From positions 49,170,312-49,234,311 of the forward strand of contig NC_081363.1 of assembly GCF_030684315.1 (NCBI RefSeq): a DNA stretch of 64,000 bases, read 5' to 3'. This stretch comes from Stegostoma tigrinum (lineage: Eukaryota). Both the position numbers and the translations under genes were made by a program. Below are positions 20,370 through 53,075 of the stretch, piece by piece. The notes under the pieces were generated by a model, which ran no database searches, was not told the origin of the DNA, and worked only from the letters and a program-made list of their open reading frames with translations. Positions within the stretch are counted from its first letter, which is position 1. Every line of letters starts with the position of its first letter.

Positions 20370-20699
20370 TATCAACTCCCTAACCTGTTCTTCCTCTCAC
20401 CCATCCCTTCCTCCCACCCCAAGCCGCACCCCCATCTACCTACTAACCTCATCCCACCTCCTTGACCTGTCCGTCTTCCCTGGACTGACCTATCCCCTCC
20501 CTACCTCCCCACCTATACTCTCCTCTCCACCTATCTTCTTTTCTCTCCATCTTCGGTCCGCCTCCCCCTCTCTCCCTATTTATTCCAGAACCCTCACCCC
20601 ATCCCCCTCTCTGATGAAGGGTCTAGGCCCGAAACGTCAGCTTTTGTGCTCCTGAGATGCTGCTTGGCCTGCTGTGTTCATCCAGCTTCACATTTTATT
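20370..20699 (+). mobile_element. Penelope-like element 3' (pLTR) fragment, young
   Basis: Pyrimidine-rich tract followed by ctgatgaagggtctaggcccgaaacgtcagcttttgtgctcctgagatgctgcttggcctgctgtgttcatccagc, the same arm found at 28340 and 31107. Confidence 0.85.
20604..20645 (+). ncRNA. Minimal type I hammerhead ribozyme motif (Penelope-type)
   Basis: CUGAUGA-A-GGG(ucuagg)CCC-GAAA-CGUC at 20611-20638 has the full catalytic core, stem II and a palindromic ACGU stem III. Stem I is only ~2 bp locally. Confidence 0.7.
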
Positions 20700-25089: not shown

Positions 25090-26825
25090 CCACATTTTCT
25101 AATAAGGAGCCACATAGCTACATGGAACACAATGCTCTGGCAATAACAAAGAATTTACTCAAATAAAATATCGGACCATGCACTAAATATTCCTGTGTAC
25201 AACACTTTCAGCAAAGGTAAGGAAGGGAAGAAAAAGGAAGACGTAGCTGTAATGATTAGAAGGAATATCAAAGTGCTGGATAGAGAAGATGTCTTGGAAG
25301 GCTCAAGACTGAATTTATTTGATTAGATTTAAGAAGCAATAGAGGTAACATTACATTAATTTTCTGTATGCTGTAGGCCACCAATTAGCAAGAACAATTT
25401 GAGGGAAACTACAAAGATGTACAAAAACTACAGAGTCATGATAATGGGGGACTTCAATTATCCTGATGTAGATTGGACCTGGAATGCTGTAAAGGGAAAG
25501 CAGGGTGTAGGTTGGCCATTGTCGTAGGTCACAGATAGCAAATACACCACAACACACAGGAGTGGTGTCATCTCATAGAGAGATGATGTCTTCACACAGA
25601 GTTAATATATTTGAGCACAGAGATCACAACTCACAATGGAAAGCATCTAATTGCATATACATGAGGTGTGGCCAAGTAGAAAGCTGGGGCAAAAAAAATT
25701 AAAACTGCCTCAGTTTTCCATGTCCCAGATGGGTTGAAGCTGCTTTATTGAGGAAAGGAATGAACACGGGACCCCTACTAAACCAGAACACTTTGCACAC
25801 CTTTGTTCAAAAAACAGTCCAAGGATGTGTTCAGCAACCTTAAACCAATCACACCAACTTCAGTGGCCGTCAAGACAATAATTAAAGGGAAAGTTAGTGA
25901 TCATTTGAACAAGTAACCAGTGAAGTAGGGAAAGGGAGAATAGATCTGTTGAGGGAAGATCATATTTAGCTAATTTGAGTATTTGATAAATTAGCTGAGA
26001 TGCTTGATGAGGGTAAGGTGATTGAGGTGGTATAGATAGGATTCCAAAAGACACTTGACAAAATTTCACATTGTATACTTGTCAGTAAATTTCAAATCCA
26101 AGGGAAAAGAAGGGAAGTTATAGCATGAATATGAAGTTTACTGAGTGACAGGAAACAGTCATTGATTGTTTTATTCCAATTGGAAGAATCAAAAAAGGGG
26201 TCTCCAGGGGTCACTATTAGGAAGACCATCTTTCTTAATCCAAATTAATGACCAACAAGGGTATTCAGGGATTAATTTTAACAATTGCAGATGACATAAA
26301 AATTTGGAAGTTAACATGAAGCATGAAGAAGAGTGATACATGAGGATGAAAAAACAGTGTAATTTGTAAACTGGTATGACTTGTTGCATATGCCTTAGAA
26401 CAGTGCTCCAGTATGACCAGTATATTCCTTCCCAAGTCTTACTGTATTATTACAAGACTTTTTCTGTCTAGGTGGTGGAATTGGGAGATTCATCACAATA
26501 TTTAATACAAAGAAATGGGCAATGATACATTTTGATGGGAAGAATGAAGAGAGGCAATACTGGAGGTAATTATAAAGTGGGTGCAGGAACAGAGACATGC
26601 ATATTCATGTAAGAAAGTGATGGCAGGATGGTTTGAGAAATTAGCTTAAAAGAAAAGCATTGGGAACTCCACGATTTGTAAATAAAGCTATGAAGTACAA
26701 AAGCAAGGAAGTTACAATGCATCTTCATAAAGCTCTAATTCAGCATAAACTGAACTATGTGTTCAATTCTGGCCACTGCATTTTAGGAAGGACATGAAAG
26801 CTTTAAAATATTTACAAAGAATTTG
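25090..26825 (+). mobile_element. Heavily decayed CR1 LINE
   Basis: IMGDFNYPDVDW (~25440), G.PQGSLLG-like (~26200) and YVQFWPLHFRKDMKAL (~26760). Confidence 0.75.
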
Positions 26826-26827
26826 GA

Positions 26828-27032
26828 GATTGTAAGAACTGCCAGTGCTGGAGTCAGAGATAACACAGTGTGGAGCTGGAGGAACACAGCAGGCCAGGCA
26901 GCATTAGAGGAGCAGGAAGGCTGACCTTTCAGGTTAGAAGGATTTCGGAAGAAGGGCCCCGATTCAAAACATCAGCTTTCCTGTTCCTGTGATGCTGCCT
27001 GGCCTGTTGTGTTCCTCCAGCTTCACACTGTG
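26828..27032. mobile_element. Palindromic Penelope-derived mini element
   Basis: Inverted arms around a degenerate hammerhead core. Probable TSD acaaagaatttgga (26814-26827) / acaaaaaatttgaa (27035-27048). Confidence 0.8.
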
Positions 27033-27674
27033 CAACAAAAAATTTGAATGGTTTTGTTGCCGTGTGTATTTTACAGTAAGTAAAACAATAAATTACAGTG
27101 AAAAGCTTTTCCACTGTCACCACGATCTGGTGCCATTTTGAATAATTTTAAGAACAGGAAAAGAAATAGAAAGAAATAGCATAAAGACAGTCCATCAGTC
27201 CTGAGCCAGGTCATCATCAACAGCATTTGTGCTGCCCTCCCACAGCCACATTCCTTGCTGCTGTCTATGCCAAGCCCAACTAACATTGAAGTTGTCACTC
27301 TTCAGGTGCCACCTTTTGTCACTGAGCTGATTCTGTTCTGCCACTGCCTTGCCACTGCTTGCACTGGACCCACCAATGTCAGAGGTCGCATCTGTCACTG
27401 ATGAGCTGACCTCGATGTCGCTGTGATGCCCTTCCTCTGCCACTTTGTTGTCGCCTGTGCTGGACACAGCTAATGACAAAGTCACTGATCCTCAGGTGCC
27501 ATTTTTTGCTGCTGGGCCTATGTTGCCAATGGCTGAAATTTCCGATGCCAGGTCCTGTACTCAACCCAGAATTATAAGTAGGGACACTCTCGCCGCTGTC
27601 ACGAGGTCCATGCTGGGCATACTTGAGTCCACACTGAGGGTCCTCACCACCATCAATGCCATCCGATCTTGAGT

Positions 27675-28110: not shown

Positions 28111-28215
28111 AGGGATAATTTGTTCTTGTAGAGAATGGGCAAGCACATTGATGGCTGTCAAGTATGACAAACATTCCATTATTATAGAAGAACACCTGGG
28201 GAAGCTGACTTCCGT

Positions 28216-28430
28216 GATAATGGGAACTGCAGATGCTGGAGAATCCAAGATATCAACGTGTGTAGCTGGATGAACACAGCAGGCCAAGCAGCATCTCAGG
28301 AGCACAAAAGCTGATGTTTCGGGCCTAGACCCTTCATCAGATGAAGGGTCTAGGCCCAAAATGTCAGCTTTTGTGCTCCTGAGATGCTGCTTGGCCTGCT
28401 GTGTTCATCCAGCTACGTACTTTGTTATCT
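28216..28430. mobile_element. Palindromic Penelope-derived mini element with hammerhead core
   Basis: ~90-bp inverted arms centred on 28339. The minus strand reads CTGATGAAGGGtctaggCCCGAAACATC. TSD 28199-28215 / 28431-28447 (15/17). Confidence 0.85.
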
Positions 28431-30200
28431 GGGAAACTGACTTCCTTTGCTTTTCCTGTGATTTGGTGCTGGATATTGCCCTAATTGCAAAACGTACATT
28501 AATTTTTTTTAAAAATTGCACCAAAAACATTGTAATATACTTTACTATTTGTGGATGAGAGATATCTGCTTCTTATTAAATAAAGCTGTTCTCCTTAGTT
28601 TAGTACTTTTTTAAAATTTATTCCAGATTAAGGTCAACTGTTTTCATGAACTATTTATTCCAATATTAATTAGAATTGCAACAACTGCTTGAAAATGCAC
28701 ATTTGTCAGAGAGCATAACTTGGTAATATGCATGATAATTTAGACATAGGAAATCTGATCAACAATGTTAAATATGCCAAATAAGCCTCAGTAACATGCA
28801 TTTAATCTCCTAAAACAAATATTGCATTTAGTAATCAAAATCTATCATCAACTAACTTGGTTTTATCTTGCAAAATGTACAGTAATGGCCTTATAATCAA
28901 TATGCTTTCATTACAGATGTTATCCTGCTTTAATATCGAATATATTGGCAGCCAACCCATGCAGTTATAGCCACCCTTGGCACTAAAATGGAGTAACATT
29001 CAACACATCCCAGTGTTCAGCTGGCAAGTATGTAGAGATTCATTTCAAGCCAATAATCTCATCTCAGGGGTCAGAGAACAATTGTACAAATGCTTTGTAT
29101 TTGTACTTTATGATTTCATCAAACCTTTCAAAAAAAATACTGCCAAGTGCTCAACCATAGTCAACCATTTTATACATAGGTATGCTACGTTTGCAATTAA
29201 TTTAGGTTAGGTAAAAATTTTTGAAATATAAAATTATAATTTACATTTATTTCTATTGTAATTATAGAGGAATCTCTTAATTATAACTGCCTAGGCCAAT
29301 GATATTACCAAATCAAATAAACCTTTAAAGTAGAAACTATAAGTCTGAATCTTTATGGTTCATTGAAAGTTGTCATTTACATTGTAACATTGTAACATCA
29401 CTATGTAAATTTTTTTCTTGCTGCCTACAGAATTGTTGAATTGTGACAGAGATTCCAAACCACGCAGCTTTAAGGCATTTTTATGATATCATGACATGTG
29501 ATGTTCCAGTATAAAGGTACCCATCTTCTCTACATTCATGGTTTCTGTGTAATGGGTTCAGTATAATCACTTGGCTGTATGTGTGCAACATACAAGAACA
29601 AAATAGGCATAGAACTCAGACTATGTTATCTGTAATATTATAACATTGTAAATAGTGATGTAAATAAACATCAAGATAGCTGACTCAAGAAGGGCCTGAA
29701 TATATGTGGTATAATGTTATGTCTACCAAAATATACAGAAAACCACAAATTACGTCCTGTTGGCGACATTTGGGCACTAAAGACCAGTCGTGACAGTTAG
29801 TTAGTGGTAACAAGAAGGTACTAGAGGCTGAAAAGACGTCCTCAGTCTGACAGTTGTTAAAATTATTTCTCTTAACAGCTGTCCATCAATCTGTCTGTGT
29901 TAAAAACTGAAGCAATAATTACAAAAATGCTAAAATGCTAAACCAAGATGTGCACTAAAGCACAGTGAGTATTCTCTCTCTCTCCCTTTTTAAAAATAAG
30001 AGGCTGCTGATCAGTTTTTATTCCTAAGTGAAGTTTTAAGTAATCCTAAAATTATCTCCAAAGTGCTTCTAGAAGAAATAGAGCTTAAAGAATACTGTAT
30101 TCTAAAGAAGCATGACCTGTGTCCAGACATCGGTCAATTCCACCATTTTCTTTTTATATTCATGCCAATTTGGAAAATGTAAGCTCATGTGACACTTTGA

Positions 30201-30400
30201 GATAGTAGGAACTGCTGATGCTGGAGTCTGAGGTAACAAGATGTAAAGCTGGATGAACACAGCAGGCCAGGCAGCATCAGAGGAGCAGGAAAGCTGACGT
30301 TTTAGGTCTGGAAGAAGGATCCAGACCCGAAACATCAGCTTTCCTGCTCTTCTAACGCTGCCTGGCCTGCAATGTTAATCCAGCTCTACACCTTGTTATC
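30201..30400. mobile_element. Palindromic Penelope-derived mini element
   Basis: Inverted arms and a core remnant gaagaaggatccagacccgaaacatc. TSD catgtgacact at 30186-30196 and 30400-30410. Confidence 0.8.
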
Positions 30401-31004
30401 ATGTGACACTATGGCCTCTTACCCATGACTGACCCAAACATGCTGCAACATGTCTGCAACTTTTAAGTGGCCAGGTATAAAACAATGACAAAAAGCAACA
30501 ACATTTTAAAGAATGTAAAGAACTCAATAAAAATGGAAAGCAGACACACACTAATAGGCTAGCATCCCATTGGAATTCTGTCAGAACTTCAGTCATTCCA
30601 AAAAAAAAACAATCTTTACTTTATGGATCAACAGATAACTGACAAATGAACAACAGCCAGTTAAACTTTTCACTTTGGATACTATGTCTTAAGAGGAATC
30701 AAAAAAAAAATTGCCAGTAGTACTTCTGACAATAACTACAAAGATCCTGACAAAATTTTTCAGATTTCAACTAATCAACTTAAAGTTTGAGTCAATTTCA
30801 GGATACATAGCTTTGAGTCCATTCGTAATGCCCTTAGCTAGGTGAAATGCTCAACTAGTTCATAGGCAGGTGTAATCCACATGAGTGTAACAAACATGAT
30901 TTCACCAAAGCCAACTTTGCCAGAAGGTTATAGAACTGAGCTTTGCCTCCACATCCATTCAATCTTTCAGAGAAACATTTCTGGACAAACCCTAATATAA
31001 TGCT

Positions 31005-31230
31005 AGATAATAAAGTGTGAAGCTGGATGAACACAGCAGGCCAAGCAGCATCTCAGGAGCACAAAAGCTGACGTTTCCAGACTAGACCCTTCATCAGAGG
31101 GGCTCTCTGATGAAGGGTCTAGGCCCAAAACGTCAGCTTTTGTGCTCCTGAGATGCTGCTTGGCCTGCTGTGTTCATCCAGCTTCACACTTTATTATCTT
31201 GGATTCTCCAGCATCTGCAGTTCCCATTAT
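31005..31230. mobile_element. Palindromic Penelope-derived mini element with two opposed hammerhead cores
   Basis: Near-perfect ~95-bp arms. Perfect 15-bp TSD ccctaatataatgct at 30990-31004 and 31231-31245. Confidence 0.9.
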
Positions 31231-31868
31231 CCCTAATATAATGCTGTTGGTGTTTTACTTGAAGATGGAAACATATTTAAAGCAATTGTGACAAATCAGC
31301 AACATCTGCAAGTGCCTGACTCTGCAACAACGATTTTAGCTGTACATTCAAAGGAAGATCCAAATCTTGCATAAGATGTAGTGTACCTCATCCATCATGA
31401 TAGTGTTGATTATTTTGCAACACATGCCTGCTATAACTGCAAAACAACAATGGTCTAAGTTGTGTAAGAAGGCCAATCAATCAGAAAAATCCAAAGTACG
31501 CTATAATGCTCCACAGTAGTATATGAAGAAGAGCCAAAGTACTTTCCAAAGTTCCTTTCATGGCAAAAAAAACATTCTAACAAAATCCAAGAGACAACCA
31601 TCCAAGAGATAAAAAAAATCACAAAAGCAGAAACCATTGCCTCTACTGAGTGATATATTCCAAAAGGAATGAACAATATTCACTGAATGCCTAATCAACA
31701 CTGGTGTGAATGCCAAAGTCATCATTATATGGTATCTTACACCAGGTGTACTCAAGAAATTGGCACAGTATGATAAATTCCACACAAAATACGCTAACTA
31801 CTCACAACAAGTCTGACATTCCATGCATTGGCATTACCTGTCTTAAAAGTGAATGCAATTCTCAAGAT

Positions 31869-46163: not shown

Positions 46164-46221
46164 TTCTGGATGTGAGTTTGCTCGCTGAGCTGGAAGGTTC
46201 GTTTTCAGACGTTTCGTCACC
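46164..46221 (-). mobile_element. Penelope element 3' terminal piece (downstream half of the interrupted hammerhead)
   Basis: Minus strand GGTGACGAAACGTCtgaaaacgaaccttccagctcagcgagcaaactcacatccagaa directly follows the Tx1 poly(A). Confidence 0.8.
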
Positions 46222-46499
46222 TTTTTTTTATTTGAAAAAATACACTTTATTCATAAGATGTACAAAAAATAAAACATATTTATGCACCTATCCAGTCATG
46301 CAAGCCGCTCTGGGTTACCCAGGGGGTATGTACACCAACTAAAAGGAAAAAAACAAACAAAGAAGAAAAAAAAGCAAAAAAAATACTCCGGCAGTCGTCT
46401 CCCCGCACAGTCCCAGTTGGCCCCCTGACCAGTTGGGGAAGGCGCCAGCTGGGCCCAGTTACCAGATAGGGCCCTTTTTTCTATTATGGACGAGGGGTT

Positions 46500-49400
46500 T
46501 CATACCGTGGTCTTTCCCCACCGCGCCTTGGCAGCGGCTGCCCCAAGTGTTAGCGCGTCCCTCAGCACGTAGTCCTGGACCTTGGAGTGCGCCAGTCTGC
46601 AACATTCGGTCGGGGTCAGTTCTTTAGCTGGCAGACCAGCAAGTGGCGGGCAGACCAAAGAGCGTCTTTCACCGCATTGATGGTCCTCCAGGCGCAGTTG
46701 ATGTTGGTCTCGGTGTGCGTCCCGGGAAACAGCCCATAGAGCACGGAGTCCCGCGTCACGGAGCTGCTCGGGACGAACCTCGACAAATACCACTGCATCC
46801 CCCTCCAGACCTCCTGTGCATAGGCACACTCCAGAAGGAGGTGATCAACAGTCTCGTCCCCCCCGCAGCCACCTCGAGGGCAGCGTGCGGTGGCCCAGAG
46901 ATTCCGGGCATGCATAAAGGATCTCACTGGCAGAGCCCCTCTCACCGCCAGCCAAGCAATGTCCTTGTGCTTGTTTGAAAGTTCTGGCGATGAGGCATTC
47001 TGCCAAATGACTTTGGCAGTCTGTGTGGGGAACCACACGACGGGATCCACCCTCTCCTTTCCCCAAAGGGTCCCGAGGATACTACGTGCTGACCACTGCC
47101 TGACAGCCTTGTGGTCAAAAGGTGTTGCCTTTCAAAAATTTCTCCACGAAGGACAGGTGGTACGGAATGGTCCAACTACTCGGAGCGTTCCGCGGCAACG
47201 AGGCCAGGCCCATCCTTCGCAACACCGGGGACAGGTAGAACCTCAGTAAGTAGTGACACTTGGTGTTTGCGTACTGAGGATCTACGCACAGCTTGATGCA
47301 GCCGCACACAAAGGTAGCCATCAGGGCGAGGGTGGCGTTCGGTATGCCCTTTCCCCCATTTTCCAGGTCTTTGTACATGGTGTCCCTGCGGACCCGGTCC
47401 ATCCTCGACCCCCAAATGAAGTGGAAGATGGCCCGGGTGACCGCAGCGGCGCAGGTCCAGGGAATAGGCCAGGCCTGCGCCACATACAATAGTACCGAAA
47501 GCCCCTCGCACCTGACAACCAGGTTCTTACCCGCGATGGAGAGGGACTGCAGCGTCCAGCTGCCCAGCTTCTGCTTCAATTTGGTGAGATGCTCCTCCCA
47601 AGTCTTAGTGCACGTCCCGGCTCCACCGAACCAAACACCCAGCACCTTCAGGTAGTCTGTCCTGACGGTGAAGGGGATGAAGGAGCGGTCGTCCCAGTTC
47701 CCGAAGAACGTGACCTCGCTCTTACCCCTATTGACTTTGGCACCCGAGGCCAGTTCAAACTGGCCGCAGATGTCCAACAGCCTACTCACCGACCGACGAT
47801 CGGTGCAGAAGACGGCGACGTCGTCCATGTACAGGGAGGTCTTGACCTGAAGGCCTCCGCTGCCTGGGATAGTCACGCCCTTCAGGCTCACATCCTTCCT
47901 GATGGATGCGGCAAAGGGCTCCACACAGCACATGAACAAGGCAGGAGAGAGCGGGCAGCCCTGCCTGACTCCAGATCCGACAGGAAAACTGTCCGATTCC
48001 CACCCGATGATCGAGACTGCGCAAACAATGTTGGTGTAGACCAGCCGGATCCAATTGCGGATGACCTCCCCGAACCCCAATTTGGAGAGGACGTCCCTCA
48101 TGTAAGCATGAAAGACCCTGTCGAAGGCCTTCTCCTGGTCCAGGCTGACGAGGCAGGTGTTCACCCGCCTGTCCTGTACGTAGGCGATCGTATCCCTGAT
48201 GAGCGCGAAGCTCTCAGCGATCTTCCTGCTCGGCACAGCACAGGTTTGGTCAGGGTGAATCACTGACTCCAGGACAGACCTGACCCGGTTGGCTATGACC
48301 TTGGCCAGGATTTTGTAGCCCACGTTCAATAGTGAAATGGGACGCCAATTCTTAATTTCTTCCCTCTCCCCCTTCCTCTTGTAAAGGAGGGTGATGATGC
48401 CCTTCCTCATGGACTTGCACATTTCCCCTGCCTGAAGCGCACTATCGTACACCTCCAGCAGGTCCTGGCCGACCAGGTCCCACAGAGCGGAATATAGCTT
48501 GACCGGTAAGCCGTCGCTCCTGGGAGTCCTATTCCTCTCCAAGGACTTGAGGGCTCTGGTCAACTCGTCCAGGGATATCGGTCAGTCCAGCCACTCCCTC
48601 GTGCTGTTGTCTAAGACCTCCGTGATAGACGACAGGAACGACTCGGAGGCCGTGCTGTCCGTGGGCTTCGTGTCGTACAGTCCGGCATAGAAGGACCTGC
48701 TGATCCTCAAAATGTCGGGCCGAAACGACGTCACCGAGCCGTCGTCCTCCTTCAGCCGGCTAAGCACAGAGCTCTCTTTGTGCACCTTCTGAAAGAAGAA
48801 GCACGAGCACGTCTTGTCCTGCTCCACGGAGCGGACCCTGGACCGGAAGATTATCCTGGAGGCCTCCGCAGCGAAGAGCGAGGCTTGCTGGCCCCTCACC
48901 TCACAGAGGTCCTCCGTGACATCGACCCCCATCAACTGCAGAAGGAGCAGGTTCTGCACCCTTTTCTGGAGTCGCGACAGCTTTCCCCGGCTCTCTCTCG
49001 CCTTCCGAACACCCTTGAAGACAAAGAACCTCTTGATGTTCTCCTTCACCGTCTCCCACCAGTCGCCTGGAGACTCAAAGAGGGGTTTCACGGTTCTCCA
49101 ACCGGCGTACACCCTCTTAAGCTCCTCGACGTTCTCTGGGGTCAACAGAGTCGTGTTGAGCTTCCACGTCCCCTTGCCGGCCGGCTGGTCATCCTGTAAG
49201 TGACAGTCGGCCAGCAGGAAGCAGTGGTCAGAGAAGATCAGCGGCTGGACGCCGTGGACCTGACTGAGAACGTCCGTGACACAAACAGGAAGTCTATCCT
49301 TGAGCGAATAGACCCGTCTGGTCGCGACCAGGTGTACCTCCGCTGCGCTCCGTCTGCAGGGGTGCTGAAGACGTCGAGCAGCTTGGCATCCTTCAGCGTG

Positions 49401-49908
49401 CCGATCAGGAATCTGGACGTGATGTCCAGTTGACTCCCCCCCGCACCCGCTGTCCCCATGCCGGATCTTGAAGTTGAAGTCTCCGCCTAGGATGACCGGC
49501 CTGGACGTAGCCAGCAGGGGTGGAAGCCGCTGCAGGACGGCTAACCGCTCACTCCGTACCGCTGGGGCGTACACGTTGATCAGCCTCAGGGGAGCGTTCC
49601 TGTAGGTGACATTAGCCACTAGGAGGCGCCCCCCCCCCCACCACCTCCTGAACTTGAGAGATGGTGAAGTTGTGCCCCCGCAGCAGAATAGCCAGGCCCG
49701 AGAAGCGACAGTCGTTATCCCCCAACCAGATCGAAGGCCCACAGGTCCAGGCGCCGGACCATTTTCCGTACCTGCCGAGGTACGGTATCACGCACTCCTA
49801 CAGAAACAGGAGGTCCGCCTTGATGGTGGTCAGGTAGGCCAACGTGGATACACATCTCGCGGTGGACCTGACGCTGCGCACATTAATGCTCACAACTCGT
49901 ACCCCCAT
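46500..49908 (-). pseudogene. Tx1 ORF2 (APE endonuclease, reverse transcriptase, C-terminal zinc finger), disrupted
   Basis: ATG at 49908, MGVRVVSINVR..LLFL*EC; INVYAP, LGGDFN, SRIDF, SDH; NWRPISLLN, LDQEKAFDRV, GVRQGCPLSP, YMDD; CPRGGCGGDETVDHLLLEC. Several frameshifts and stops. Confidence 0.92.
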
Positions 49909-51358
49909 TGTGGGCAGTGACCGCAGTACCCTCCCCGAGTCCAAGGTCCAGCCCCTCCATCTGTCCCTTCATGCCTGTTTCCCGGGCTAACTGCTGGACG
50001 CTCTCCGGGCTCAGGAAACCGTCTGTGCTGCCTTCCGGGTGGCATCCCTCCGTCGGGGGTAAGGAGGCAGGAGAGTCCGGCTCTGGGTCAGGCTGGGGAC
50101 ACACTGTTTCCTCCTTCCCACCTGGAAGTTCTGGGGGGCCCTCCAGTGCCCCAGCAGCACTTGACTGGGTGTCGGCAGGAGCCTCAGGACACCTCCCGTC
50201 ACCTGGAAGCGGGGTGCTGCTTTCCTTCTCCCTTGAGATCATTAACTTCTGCTTCGGGCGGGACATCTCCAAATCCCCCTCGTCAGAGGAGCTCTTATAG
50301 CCCCCCTGTAGCTGCCTCTTCCTGCCTGATGGTTGCGGTTCCTGGGCCCACCAACGCACCTTCCTCCTCGCTTTCCGGACCGTCGTCCACTCCCCTGGGT
50401 CGCCTGTCGCCGCCTCCATCGACTCCGGGTTGTCGGGGTGGGGGGGAGCGGAGCCTGCAGGGGCGCTTTGCTGGCCTCGGGCCCATCCTGTGGGGCTGGG
50501 CCCTCCTGCACGACCTGGCCCTCCTGCTCATTAGTGGGGTCCCTGCTGGGCTCTGGTGCCTTCCTCTCCTCCGGGGGGGCTGGCCCTGCATTGCCCCTGC
50601 CGGCGACCTGGGCGTAGGTGGTCCCCCGCCGCGAGCATGCCCTATAGAGGTGGCCCGCTTCCCCGCAAAGGTTGCAGCTTTTCTCTTGTGGGCAATCCTT
50701 TGCAAGGTGTCCCTCCTCCCCGCAGTTCCTGTAGATGGTGGCTTTGCAGTCGGCCGCCACGTGACCTGACCTACCGCAGGCATGGCAGACTTTAGGTTGC
50801 CCTGCATAGGTCAGGTAGCCCTTGCTCCCGCCGATCGCGAAGCTGGACAGTGGGTGTACGACGTTCCCGTCCGCGCCCATCCTCAGCGTCACCTTGACCT
50901 GCCTCTTACTGGTCCAGATGCCAAAGGGGTCCCCATGATGTCAGTTAGGTCCCCTTCCACCTTTATGTACCTTCCAAGGAAGGTCAGGACATCAACTGCT
51001 GCTGGCACATGCGGGTTGTACTGTGTACAGTCACCATACGGCTCCTCTGTGCTGGCATCACAAACAGCGGGACAGCGGTCAATACAGAGAGGGGGCTCTC
51101 ACCTCCTTTCTCCTTGGAAACCTCCAGGAAGCGCTCGCAAAGCTTGGCATGCCTGAAGGTCACATCGTAAAAACCTCCTCCGGGGAAATCCTGCAGGCAG
51201 TAAATGTCCGCAGCAGCGAACCCACAACAGTCCAACAGGACCCTCTTCACGAAGAGGACGCGGCCCACAGGTGCACCTTCATCCACCTTCTTCGGGGAAA
51301 CACAGATGGTGTTCCGGACCCCCTGACCTGGGGCACGAGCACTTGCCACAGCCATCAT
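49883..51358 (-). pseudogene. Tx1 ORF1 (ZCCHC3-like gag with three CCHC knuckles), frameshifted
   Basis: MMAVASARAPGQGVRNT..IYCLQDFPGGGFYDVTF; YAGQPKVCHACGRSGHVAADC, (Y)RNCGEEGHLAKDC, CNLCGEAGHLYRAC; low-complexity C-terminus. Confidence 0.88.
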
Positions 51359-51544
51359 TGCAAGTTGGCTGCTCCCCTGATCCAGCGTTAGGCCGAAGCC
51401 AGCATTAAGATCCACCGGTTGCAAGGTTGCACAGCCAACCCGACATCTTCCTTTCACCTCCAACACAGCGCTCTCCTCCTCTTGGTTCACAAGAGAGTGG
51501 GTCTTTATTTTGTTCCAGATGTAAGCTGGTTCACTGAGCTTGAA

Positions 51545-51600
51545 GGTTTGTTCCCAGACATTTCATCACCATTCTAGGTAACATCAACAGTGAGCCTCCG
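51545..51600 (-). ncRNA. Type I hammerhead ribozyme motif (mutated copy) spanning the Penelope/Tx1 5' junction
   Basis: ggaggcuca-CUGUUGA-U-GUUACC(uagaau)GGUGAU-GAAA-UGUC^ugggaacaaaccuuc. The other TSD copy preserves GGUGAC-GAAA-CGUC. One core substitution (CUGA to CUGU) and two CpG-type transitions. Confidence 0.7.
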
Positions 51601-51895
51601 ACGAAGCACCGGTGTTACGTCCGGCTTTCTATTTATCTGTTTAGGTTTCCTTGGGTTGGTGATGCATTGATGATGTCATTTCCTGTTCTATTCCTCAGGG
51701 GATGGTAGATTGGCTCCAAATCAATGTGCTTGTTGATGGAGTTCCGGTTGGAATGCCACGCTTCTAGGAATTCTCGTGCAGGTCTCTGTTTGGCTTGTCT
51801 TAGGATGGATGTGTTGTCCCAATCAAAGTGGTGTCCTTCCTCATCTGTATGTAAGGATACGAGTGATAGTGGGTCATGTCGTTTTGTGGCTATGA
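51555..51895 (-). mobile_element. Penelope-like element, GIY-YIG C-terminus and 3' UTR
   Basis: ORF 51633-51914 ATKRHDPLSLVSLHTDEEGHHFDWDNTSIL..K..AREFLEAWHS..SINKHIDL.PIY is the typical end of a Penelope endonuclease. Confidence 0.88.
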
Positions 51896-52377
51896 TGGAC
51901 ATGTAACTGTACACAAAATGTCATGACAGATATGACCTAAAGAAGCAAACAATAACTAACCAATGGAATGTAGAGCCAGTATGAAGGGTAACATTTATAA
52001 AAGAATCATTCAATAATGTGAAAGAAGTTTGCGTGTCGCCATAAAACAAGCTGGGACAAAAAGTACAGTGCTAGTGTAGAGGACTTTGCTAGCTGCCTAA
52101 GAGGTTACACCAACTTATTGGTTTGGATTTTCTGTAAATATTGAATGTGGAATGTCAGCCTTTACTGTTTTCTAGAGTAAATCAGATGCAACTGACCACT
52201 GAACATTTTTGCATTGGCCTCCTCCCAGACTAGAGCAGTAAGCAATACCAATATCTCACGTCTCACAGTTACAGAAAGAGGTAACTGTTACACTTTTGTC
52301 CAGGGAGGGGAAAACCCTCTTTTCAAAGTGAAGCTGGCAAAGTATACATGTGGTTACATCAACCTTACAGACATTCT

Positions 52378-53075
52378 TGTGACGTAGGGTGACGATACTA
52401 TGCCTTTAAAAGGTGTATTTTGTCCTGTTTATTTCAAAAGAATTCTTGAGCCAGAGATGTTGAGCTGTCTCTTCCAAGCCAATAAAATAAACAGCGTGAG
52501 AGCCTCTGGGATCTTTTTAAAAAGTTAAAGCAATAGAAGCAGCATGAATCGGTAGAGTCAGGCTTCCACACAACCAAGGTTTTAGTTTAGTTTTCAGTTG
52601 TTGGGGTTTTGAAGTTCTTTGTGGAAGTTGCTGTACATCTCTCTTGGTTACAACAAAAAGCTTGTGTTTTCTCTCTCTCTTTCTCTTTCTGACTCCGTGA
52701 GAATTTTCTCTTGGAGAAACAATGCATGTGAGACAATCTATTTTGCTGAAATTGCCCTTGCCATGGGTGTTGCTATGGGATGTTACTTGAACAGTTGCTG
52801 TTTTGCAGTTAAATAATCTGTTATTCTGTTAAGTTTTCTAGTAGAGTTAAATTAGGCCTGAAATGTCAGCTTTCCTGCTCGTACTGCTGTGCTCATCCAG
52901 CTCCACACCTTGTTATCACCAATTCTTCTTTATTTTGTTTGTATTTTAATTGGGTGTTAGAATAAAGTTTGTTTTGCTGAGAAGTGTGACAAATTGAATT
53001 GCATCTGGAACACACAGCACCTTATACTTGCCTTTAAATAAGATAAAATTTAGGGTGTTAGCCGCACAAAGATAC
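52378..53075 (+). mobile_element. Probable solo LTR, with a small PLE fragment inserted at ~52855-52920
   Basis: Begins TGTGAC, contains a CT-rich tract and AATAAA (~52960); no internal domain adjacent. Confidence 0.45.

Follow-up and report, generated by a model that had tools for sequence, protein, structure and literature searches.

R2 elements use a restriction-like endonuclease. In the R2 model, 5' joining and the start of the second strand are the greatest uncertainty (PMC3774820), and for LINEs both steps are an open question. At every 5' junction of earwig R2, 22 bp of downstream target recur as a fixed copy that has diverged by three substitutions. The explanation proposed is that the RNA includes upstream target, so that cDNA and target form a heteroduplex and the 5' junctions are uniform; variants in the junction propagate when the RNA includes upstream target (PMC3774820). 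The Tx1-type LINE described here likewise has a fixed, diverged piece of downstream target and uniform 5' junctions. Unlike this Tx1, R2 has its own HDV-like ribozyme cutting upstream, and its target is 28S (PMC3774820). Here an AP-endonuclease LINE targets the hammerhead of another retroelement and itself carries a degraded copy of that ribozyme motif.

Several Tx1 families target transposons, including Tx1L in Tx1D, Tx1-Mar in Mariner-N4 and Tx1-9_AMi in Harbinger, while LTR elements are the targets of Tx1-8_Crp and Tx1-4_AMi (PMC4494074). Transcription from flanking target was proposed for this group, and SINEU-2B has a target-like 5' extension (PMC4494074). Like them, the present element is a two-ORF Tx1-type LINE preferring one site in a multicopy mobile element. 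Unlike the present case, "Penelope" is absent from the main text of PMC4494074, and its accessible text describes neither target conversion by donor alleles nor a ribozyme. Our literature searches, at the level of listings and abstract openings, showed no report of Tx1 targeting Penelope hammerheads or of target conversion by donor alleles; Repbase, subscription papers and supplements may bear on novelty. The hammerheads at issue resemble the minimal type I motifs of metazoan Penelope elements in having a 6-bp stem II with an unpaired base before it, no helix III (a palindromic ACGU instead) and copies in opposite orientation 100-700 bp apart (PMC4209133, PMC11167929). They differ from the known ones in that about 12% of the sites are interrupted by Tx1, with the upstream half usually replaced by a mutated version.

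We analyzed a 64,000-nucleotide stretch of the Stegostoma tigrinum genome (the window) and searched 3.2 Gb of genome for related loci. Positions are numbered on the minus strand from +0, the first G of GGTGAC, which is 51570 in the window at the 5' junction and, at the 3' junction, 46221. On this scale the hammerhead is predicted to be cut at +13/+14, and core nucleotide A6 is -17, or 51587. The locus is laid out as follows.

51571..51904, minus strand: 3'-terminal arm of a Penelope-like element (end of the RT and GIY-YIG ORF), the insertion host, mostly host-derived; extent from arm comparison
51591..51599, minus strand: 5' strand of hammerhead stem I, distal GGAGG and proximal CTCA, from the fold
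51584..51590, minus strand: hammerhead core C3-A9, here CTGTTGA; the T at 51587 (-17, A6) is the Tx1-linked allele
51565..51582, minus strand: stem II plus loop II, as seen in the fold; Tx1 insertion point at 51571/51570 (+0)
51555..51570, minus strand: 5' copy of +0..+15, the TSD of the preliminary description; holds G12-C17 and the predicted cut 51557/51556
51513..51554, minus strand: captured, diverged copy of target +16..+57, 31/42 to the locus's own 3' flank
46231..51512, minus strand: Tx1-type LINE body, interrupted by stops and frameshifts
51562-50242, minus strand: ORF1 pieces with ZCCHC3-like RNA-binding domains and CCHC knuckles
49787-46616, minus strand: ORF2 pieces with AP endonuclease, RT and zf-RVT
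46222..46230, minus strand: short A-run closing the Tx1 3' end
46164..46221, minus strand: host Penelope tail, +0..+57, host-derived, with unmutated GAAACGTC

The host has the features of a Penelope-like element: an RT followed by a C-terminal GIY-YIG, a variable tail and inverted arms. Its relatives at other loci give RVT_1 and GIY-YIG matches just under the curated Pfam cut-offs. The Penelope stop codon TAG (51576-51574) sits within hammerhead loop II, so Tx1 enters 3 nt past the stop and leaves the Penelope ORF uninterrupted.

The preliminary description had proposed that a hammerhead is rebuilt at the junction, and the minimum-energy fold (-12.5 kcal/mol) agrees: it contains a 4-bp stem I, cuca/uggg with one G-U, as well as the pairing ggagg/ccuuc at its distal end and a 6-bp stem II. 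The cut is predicted where it had been placed, between 51557 and 51556, and the core reads CUGUUGA / GAAAUGUC. A scan against Rfam at E<=1 did not detect a hammerhead, giving just weak matches to an unrelated palindrome. Core, stems I and II and the palindromic stem III of a minimal type I hammerhead are all present in empty sites, 9,370 of 12,590 with an intact core.

The element belongs to the Tx1 clade by its domains, with CCHC knuckles and RNA-binding domains in ORF1 and an AP endonuclease, an RT and a C-terminal zinc region in ORF2. The endonuclease match in this decayed copy is weak (E=0.003, below cut-off). The nearest named relatives of ORF2 are amphibian proteins (~50%) and fish Tx1 proteins (~40%). 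By pairwise scores only, the RT is 41% identical to "transposon TX1" (383 bits) and scores up to 552 bits with amphibian relatives and 170 bits with human L1 ORF2.

A first look gave 1,946 candidates by 5' end and 2,111 by 3' end, and about 1,800 full-length Tx1 starts are present in the genome. Exact patterns, which give lower bounds, counted 1,764 element-type and 12,590 target-type sites, an occupancy of about 12%. The target is sequence-specific: the same site adjoins every sampled 3' end, 30/30 in one sample and 39/39 in another (29 common to both). The spacer at the A-run is 7-11 nt in 106 out of 114 Tx1 3' ends, and such a short, uniform A-run suggests read-through at the 3' end as well. 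Three Tx1 3' ends in this tally (L081, L082 and L089) share more than 600 nt of unique flank and are segmental duplicates; they were counted separately, unmerged. Among 39 copies chosen at the 3' side, the 5' end is complete in 31 and truncated in seven, with one copy (L228) not assigned, a full-length share of about 80% in the sample. Of 40 copies chosen by 5' end, three had no 3' end in range.

Copies deviate from column majorities by 2.3% at non-CpG sites. Because a tree of 68 full-length copies was star-like and weakly supported, linkage was tested at each site separately. At 76 diagnostic sites the same copies (L091-L129 and L190-L227) form strong mosaics, which suggests that templates were often switched or that conversion was frequent. 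Only one of the 68 retains a stop-free stretch of more than 1,000 aa. Variants shared among copies have an ORF2 pN/pS of 0.46-0.48 against 0.87 for singletons (p=0.02 pooled), showing purifying selection on shared variants as expected of autonomous sources.

That the first 42 nt past the supposed TSD resemble the downstream target was confirmed: 51554-51513 aligns on the minus strand to 46205-46164 ungapped with 31/42 identities, or 45/58 when the 16 nt in front are added. The best 42-mer match in 20 shuffled windows was 23-26/42, and the next real match in the window 23/42. The preliminary description had asked whether this variant is general to Tx1 5' ends, and it is. Its diagnostic part has 1,202 exact matches in the genome; by hand count, all 100 of the matches listed run into Tx1 and none into the Penelope tail, so the 42-nt piece is part of the element.

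Alternatively, the piece could be a variant from some Penelope subfamily, another terminal repeat, or an ordinary TSD that happens to be long. In two 3' flanks (L039 and L050) a portion of the variant does run on into Penelope tail, older Penelope-like families have single letters of it, and 5/5 inspected copies whose 5' side is target-type at +21 have a matching 3' side, so a longer host strand is sometimes kept. We nevertheless find this explanation extremely improbable, refuted by the 100 listed matches for that sample and contradicted by the target-type letter at +16 in 102 out of 107 3' flanks that have no Tx1 next to them. The piece is rather, as first described, an old target segment captured at the 5' end of the family. 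Three loci (L107, L132 and L079) have older Penelope-like hammerhead variants with some letters of the captured piece, such as C at +42, hinting that an older Penelope-like family might have been the source.

The 16 nt in front of it fared differently as a target duplication. The 5' copy of +0..+15 bears element-borne alleles throughout the Tx1 family and differs systematically, and in one direction, from the 3' copy of the same element, so identical duplications do not flank the element. Overwriting by the donor explains the mismatch; it weakens the TSD label and leaves membership in the Tx1 clade intact.

Penelope ends here are often head-to-head twin arms, and the twin therefore provides a control for insertion versus composite movement. 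In 35 pairs with one filled and one empty arm, rare non-CpG alleles were common to the twin in 20/40 cases at -520..-200 (0.02 when shuffled, p=0.001), in 17/42 at -100..-35 (0.16, p=0.001) and in 9/41 in the 3' tail (0.05, p=0.001). Sharing at -200..-100 was not significant (22/72 vs 0.18, p=0.09). At -35..0 alleles were again shared, in 5/34 cases, but not in the 5' +0..+58 patch (4/44 vs 0.10). Since the flanks beyond about -35 and the 3' tail track the host twin, these are real Tx1 insertions into existing Penelope-like copies. Tx1 enters such copies and overwrites a short patch at the 5' junction.

The extent of the patch is seen in 48 filled/empty twin pairs, from a set of 77 arm pairs of which three were unclassified. 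At -17 the filled arm has T and its twin A in 33 pairs and the reverse in none, in a sample enriched for T; at +11 the counts are 30 vs 1. Directional differences are limited to -17..+54, and a donor tract reaching to -70 was not significant in the 48 pairs (6 vs 1, p=0.125). Many copies are thus donor-type from -17 to +57 at least, while sequence further upstream and the 3' tail match the host twin.

These results bear on whether the Penelope end, Tx1 and the tail move as one composite RNA copied by the Penelope enzyme. Each of the seven truncated copies among the 39 is fused head-to-head with an inverted arm of Tx1 or Penelope, resembling Penelope insertions. Of 16 inverted Tx1 pairs, four have arms that are mutually nearest when compared with any of 63-67 background copies (L149, without arm overlap, was left out), and in vitro Penelope reverse transcription does not need cleavage by the hammerhead (PMC11167929). 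Against composite movement, rare alleles of the empty twin recur in the upstream arm and the tail at rates resembling those of 16 empty/empty pairs, and the tail has no family-specific allele (G at +21 in 33/107 vs 30/92). The twin is also filled in 10/58 pairs, close to the 12% occupancy. Seven of 116 3' ends (L005, L012, L020, L123, L128, L230 and L233) adjoin another Tx1 5' end in head-to-tail tandems fused exactly at the target site, and ORF2 is under the purifying selection described above. We therefore consider composite movement a very unlikely account of the family, though it may still be a minor route.

The core mutation was first read as decay of the window copy. It is instead a trait of the Tx1 family, and the window's own copy carries it as T at -17. 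In the same context the genome has 881 CTGTTGA and 12,688 CTGATGA sites; among the first 30 listed of each, Tx1 is next to 29 CTGTTGA loci and one CTGATGA locus (p=1.5e-14). In arms unselected at -17, T is present in 42/70 filled and 2/92 empty arms, and A at +11 in 49/70 and 5/92; columns beyond -565 were excluded from this comparison, as the reference is itself an inverted pair. A hand count of the first 100 listed gave T at -17 in 41 element-type and no target-type sites, and A at +11 in 74 and 8, respectively. The two ends of the same copy tell the same story in 64 copies, with four of 68 pairs unparsed. At +11, A on the 5' side is paired with G on the 3' side in 42 copies and the reverse is found in three, and directional counts are 11 vs 0 for G at +7 and 10 vs 0 for T at +9. 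A GATT allele replaces the conserved AAA at +7..+10 on the 5' side in 10-11 copies. GATT is linked to internal Tx1 site 1374 (p=9e-5; 0.007 corrected for 76 sites). No linkage to internal sites was detected in the 76-site test for the -17 and +11 alleles, nor to the Tx1 haplotype for the 3' tail marker and junction type. The +6 change (G12A) shows no excess when 5' and 3' sides of the same copy are compared (16 vs 9, p=0.23) and may be CpG decay.

Donor alleles form a gradient, from 41-60% at -17 through about 70% at +11 and about 87% at +16/+17 to 99% at +37. The element-borne alleles 2 to 30 nt upstream of the cut affect core positions A6, A13-A15.1 and G16.2. Changes at A6 and A13-A15.1 abolish hammerhead cleavage. 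The nearby G12 is the general base of the hammerhead (PMC12192606). The element-borne core alleles thus likely inactivate the hammerhead, judging from sequence. Target immunity as a cause of the mutations is not favored, as the tandem 3' ends (7/116) adjoin donor-type junctions, the order of insertion in tandems being ambiguous.

The preliminary description had further proposed that the chimeric hammerhead cleaves a co-transcript at GUC and thereby defines where the transposing RNA begins; this could apply today or to an ancestral state. Release of R2 by a ribozyme is a precedent (PMC3774820). The proximal stem I does gain a pair (4 bp in 88/103 filled arms, compared with 3 bp in 85/91 empty ones), the core is still intact at 210 element-type junctions, and one junction (L017) begins near +15. 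Yet a template cut at GUC could not carry the upstream alleles, and a cut-defined start fails for most copies. If upstream sequence came from hosts of the same age, an intact core would be expected in about 59% of element-type junctions, based on decay measured on 3' sides. Only 210/1,764 (11.9%; 9/103 among fetched arms) have one. A start set by the cut is therefore compatible with no more than about 20% of insertions, and some of the 210 may be point-changed empty sites. No internal marker groups the intact copies into a lineage, in a comparison of low power. The distal stem I is weaker when the site is filled (5 bp in 69/103 filled vs 75/91 empty arms), other non-homologous starts lie at about -28, -3, +26 and +28, and metazoan minimal hammerheads were inactive as single motifs in PMC4209133. 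Release by the rebuilt hammerhead is therefore unsupported for at least about 80% of insertions, and for these the 5' end of the transposing RNA does not fit a ribozyme cut as in R2. We judge such release very improbable as the general route; it is possible for up to about 20% of events or as the ancestral state.

Another part of the same proposal, that Tx1 is co-transcribed with upstream sequence and that homology assists 5' joining, is supported by the allele patterns and would extend to upstream of the cut. Out of 151 distinct 5' ends, 137 run into plain Penelope sequence upstream, one more does so by inspection and seven are tandem, and tandem duplications of upstream target, the R2-type marks of an RNA start, were not found among the 151. 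Such uniform junctions are consistent with a template RNA that would include upstream target.

Our main reading, to which we assign a probability of roughly three in four, is that Tx1 inserts at one site in the Penelope hammerhead, carries alleles that likely inactivate it, and is likely copied from an uncut RNA starting upstream, whose cDNA end likely anneals to the target and completes the 5' junction. By analogy with established TPRT, the AP endonuclease would nick the site and prime reverse transcription by the element's own ORF2. The template would begin upstream of -17, and the cDNA would pass through the hammerhead and form a heteroduplex with the host strand; crossover within this heteroduplex or its repair could give the donor-allele gradient. 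The 42-nt piece may go back to a former duplication of downstream target that has been passed on from copy to copy since the transposing RNA includes it, a history like the one proposed for earwig R2. Transcription could originate in a Penelope remnant or in genomic read-through. Penelope has an internal promoter in Drosophila (PMC2377424), which these truncated arms may or may not retain. A point against an upstream start is that none of the seven truncated copies has plain target upstream.

It could be argued that the RNA starts at or near the element boundary and that ectopic gene conversion between Tx1 copies spread the upstream alleles afterwards. The strong mosaicism at the 76 diagnostic sites fits this, as do two copies (L197 and L208) with a donor-type patch on the 3' side too. 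But conversion anchored in Tx1 should also homogenize the 3' tail, which tracks the host twin, and it would need to reach about half of some 1,800 loci in one direction. We regard this as unlikely to be the main cause, although, the copies being mosaic, later conversion may contribute to the allele pattern under an upstream start. In L197 and L208, whose 3' ends are the same as L039 and L050, the patch is about 35 nt long and is followed by the normal Penelope tail; these are possibly targets scarred by aborted insertion or by excision between homologous ends.

Returning to the upstream-start reading, sources with a dead ribozyme might be favored, since they would keep the upstream arm and a capped RNA. 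T at -17 persists, in both subgroups at +29 (18/26 and 20/32), though each insertion can restore the host allele, and the frequent upstream alleles hit the core, suggesting selection for a dead ribozyme. Of the four core lesions two are CpG transitions, and with only two non-CpG lesions (A6U and GATT) selection is undemonstrated, plausible as it may be. More tentatively still, and on balance doubtfully, the element could be a LINE parasitic on the ribozyme site of another retroelement and selected to kill the ribozyme in its own copy. The uncut co-transcript would then keep homology arms at both ends, one upstream of the hammerhead and one past the short genome-encoded A-run, allowing mostly full-length, homology-guided joining and gene conversion of each host site.

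The family offers about 1,800 natural events of an AP-endonuclease LINE with marked donor alleles and two built-in controls for each, the target's 3' copy and the inverted twin arm of the host. A single genome is enough to map how long the heteroduplex is, where the nick falls and how repair is biased. With about 80% of its copies full-length in our sample, the family also matters for tools that insert DNA from an RNA template. It extends the list of Tx1 targets to Penelope hammerheads and indicates that a hammerhead motif at the 5' end of an element need not define the transcript start.

Other features of the locus and family were observed. At 3' junctions (46221-46190 in the window, and others) the substrate half of the hammerhead is kept, with GUC and the stem I 3' strands, while the CUGAUGA half is absent. 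Speculatively, a read-through Tx1 RNA might be cleaved in trans by Penelope RNAs that are intact, which would leave 14 nt of target homology at the 3' end of the Tx1 RNA. Another short repeat family in the window has CTGATGA...GAAACGTC-like motifs, often in palindromic pairs (20607-20699, 26823-27034, 28213-28434, 30196-30403, 30970-31231 and 52853-52918). These are probably the ends of another Penelope-like family, and the copies in the window contain no Tx1. Truncated Tx1 fused head-to-head was seen at L195, L206, L207, L211, L213, L215, L216, L139, L144 and L208. These fusions could have arisen through insertion at both twin sites at once, through copying driven by Penelope or through conversion from one arm to the other.
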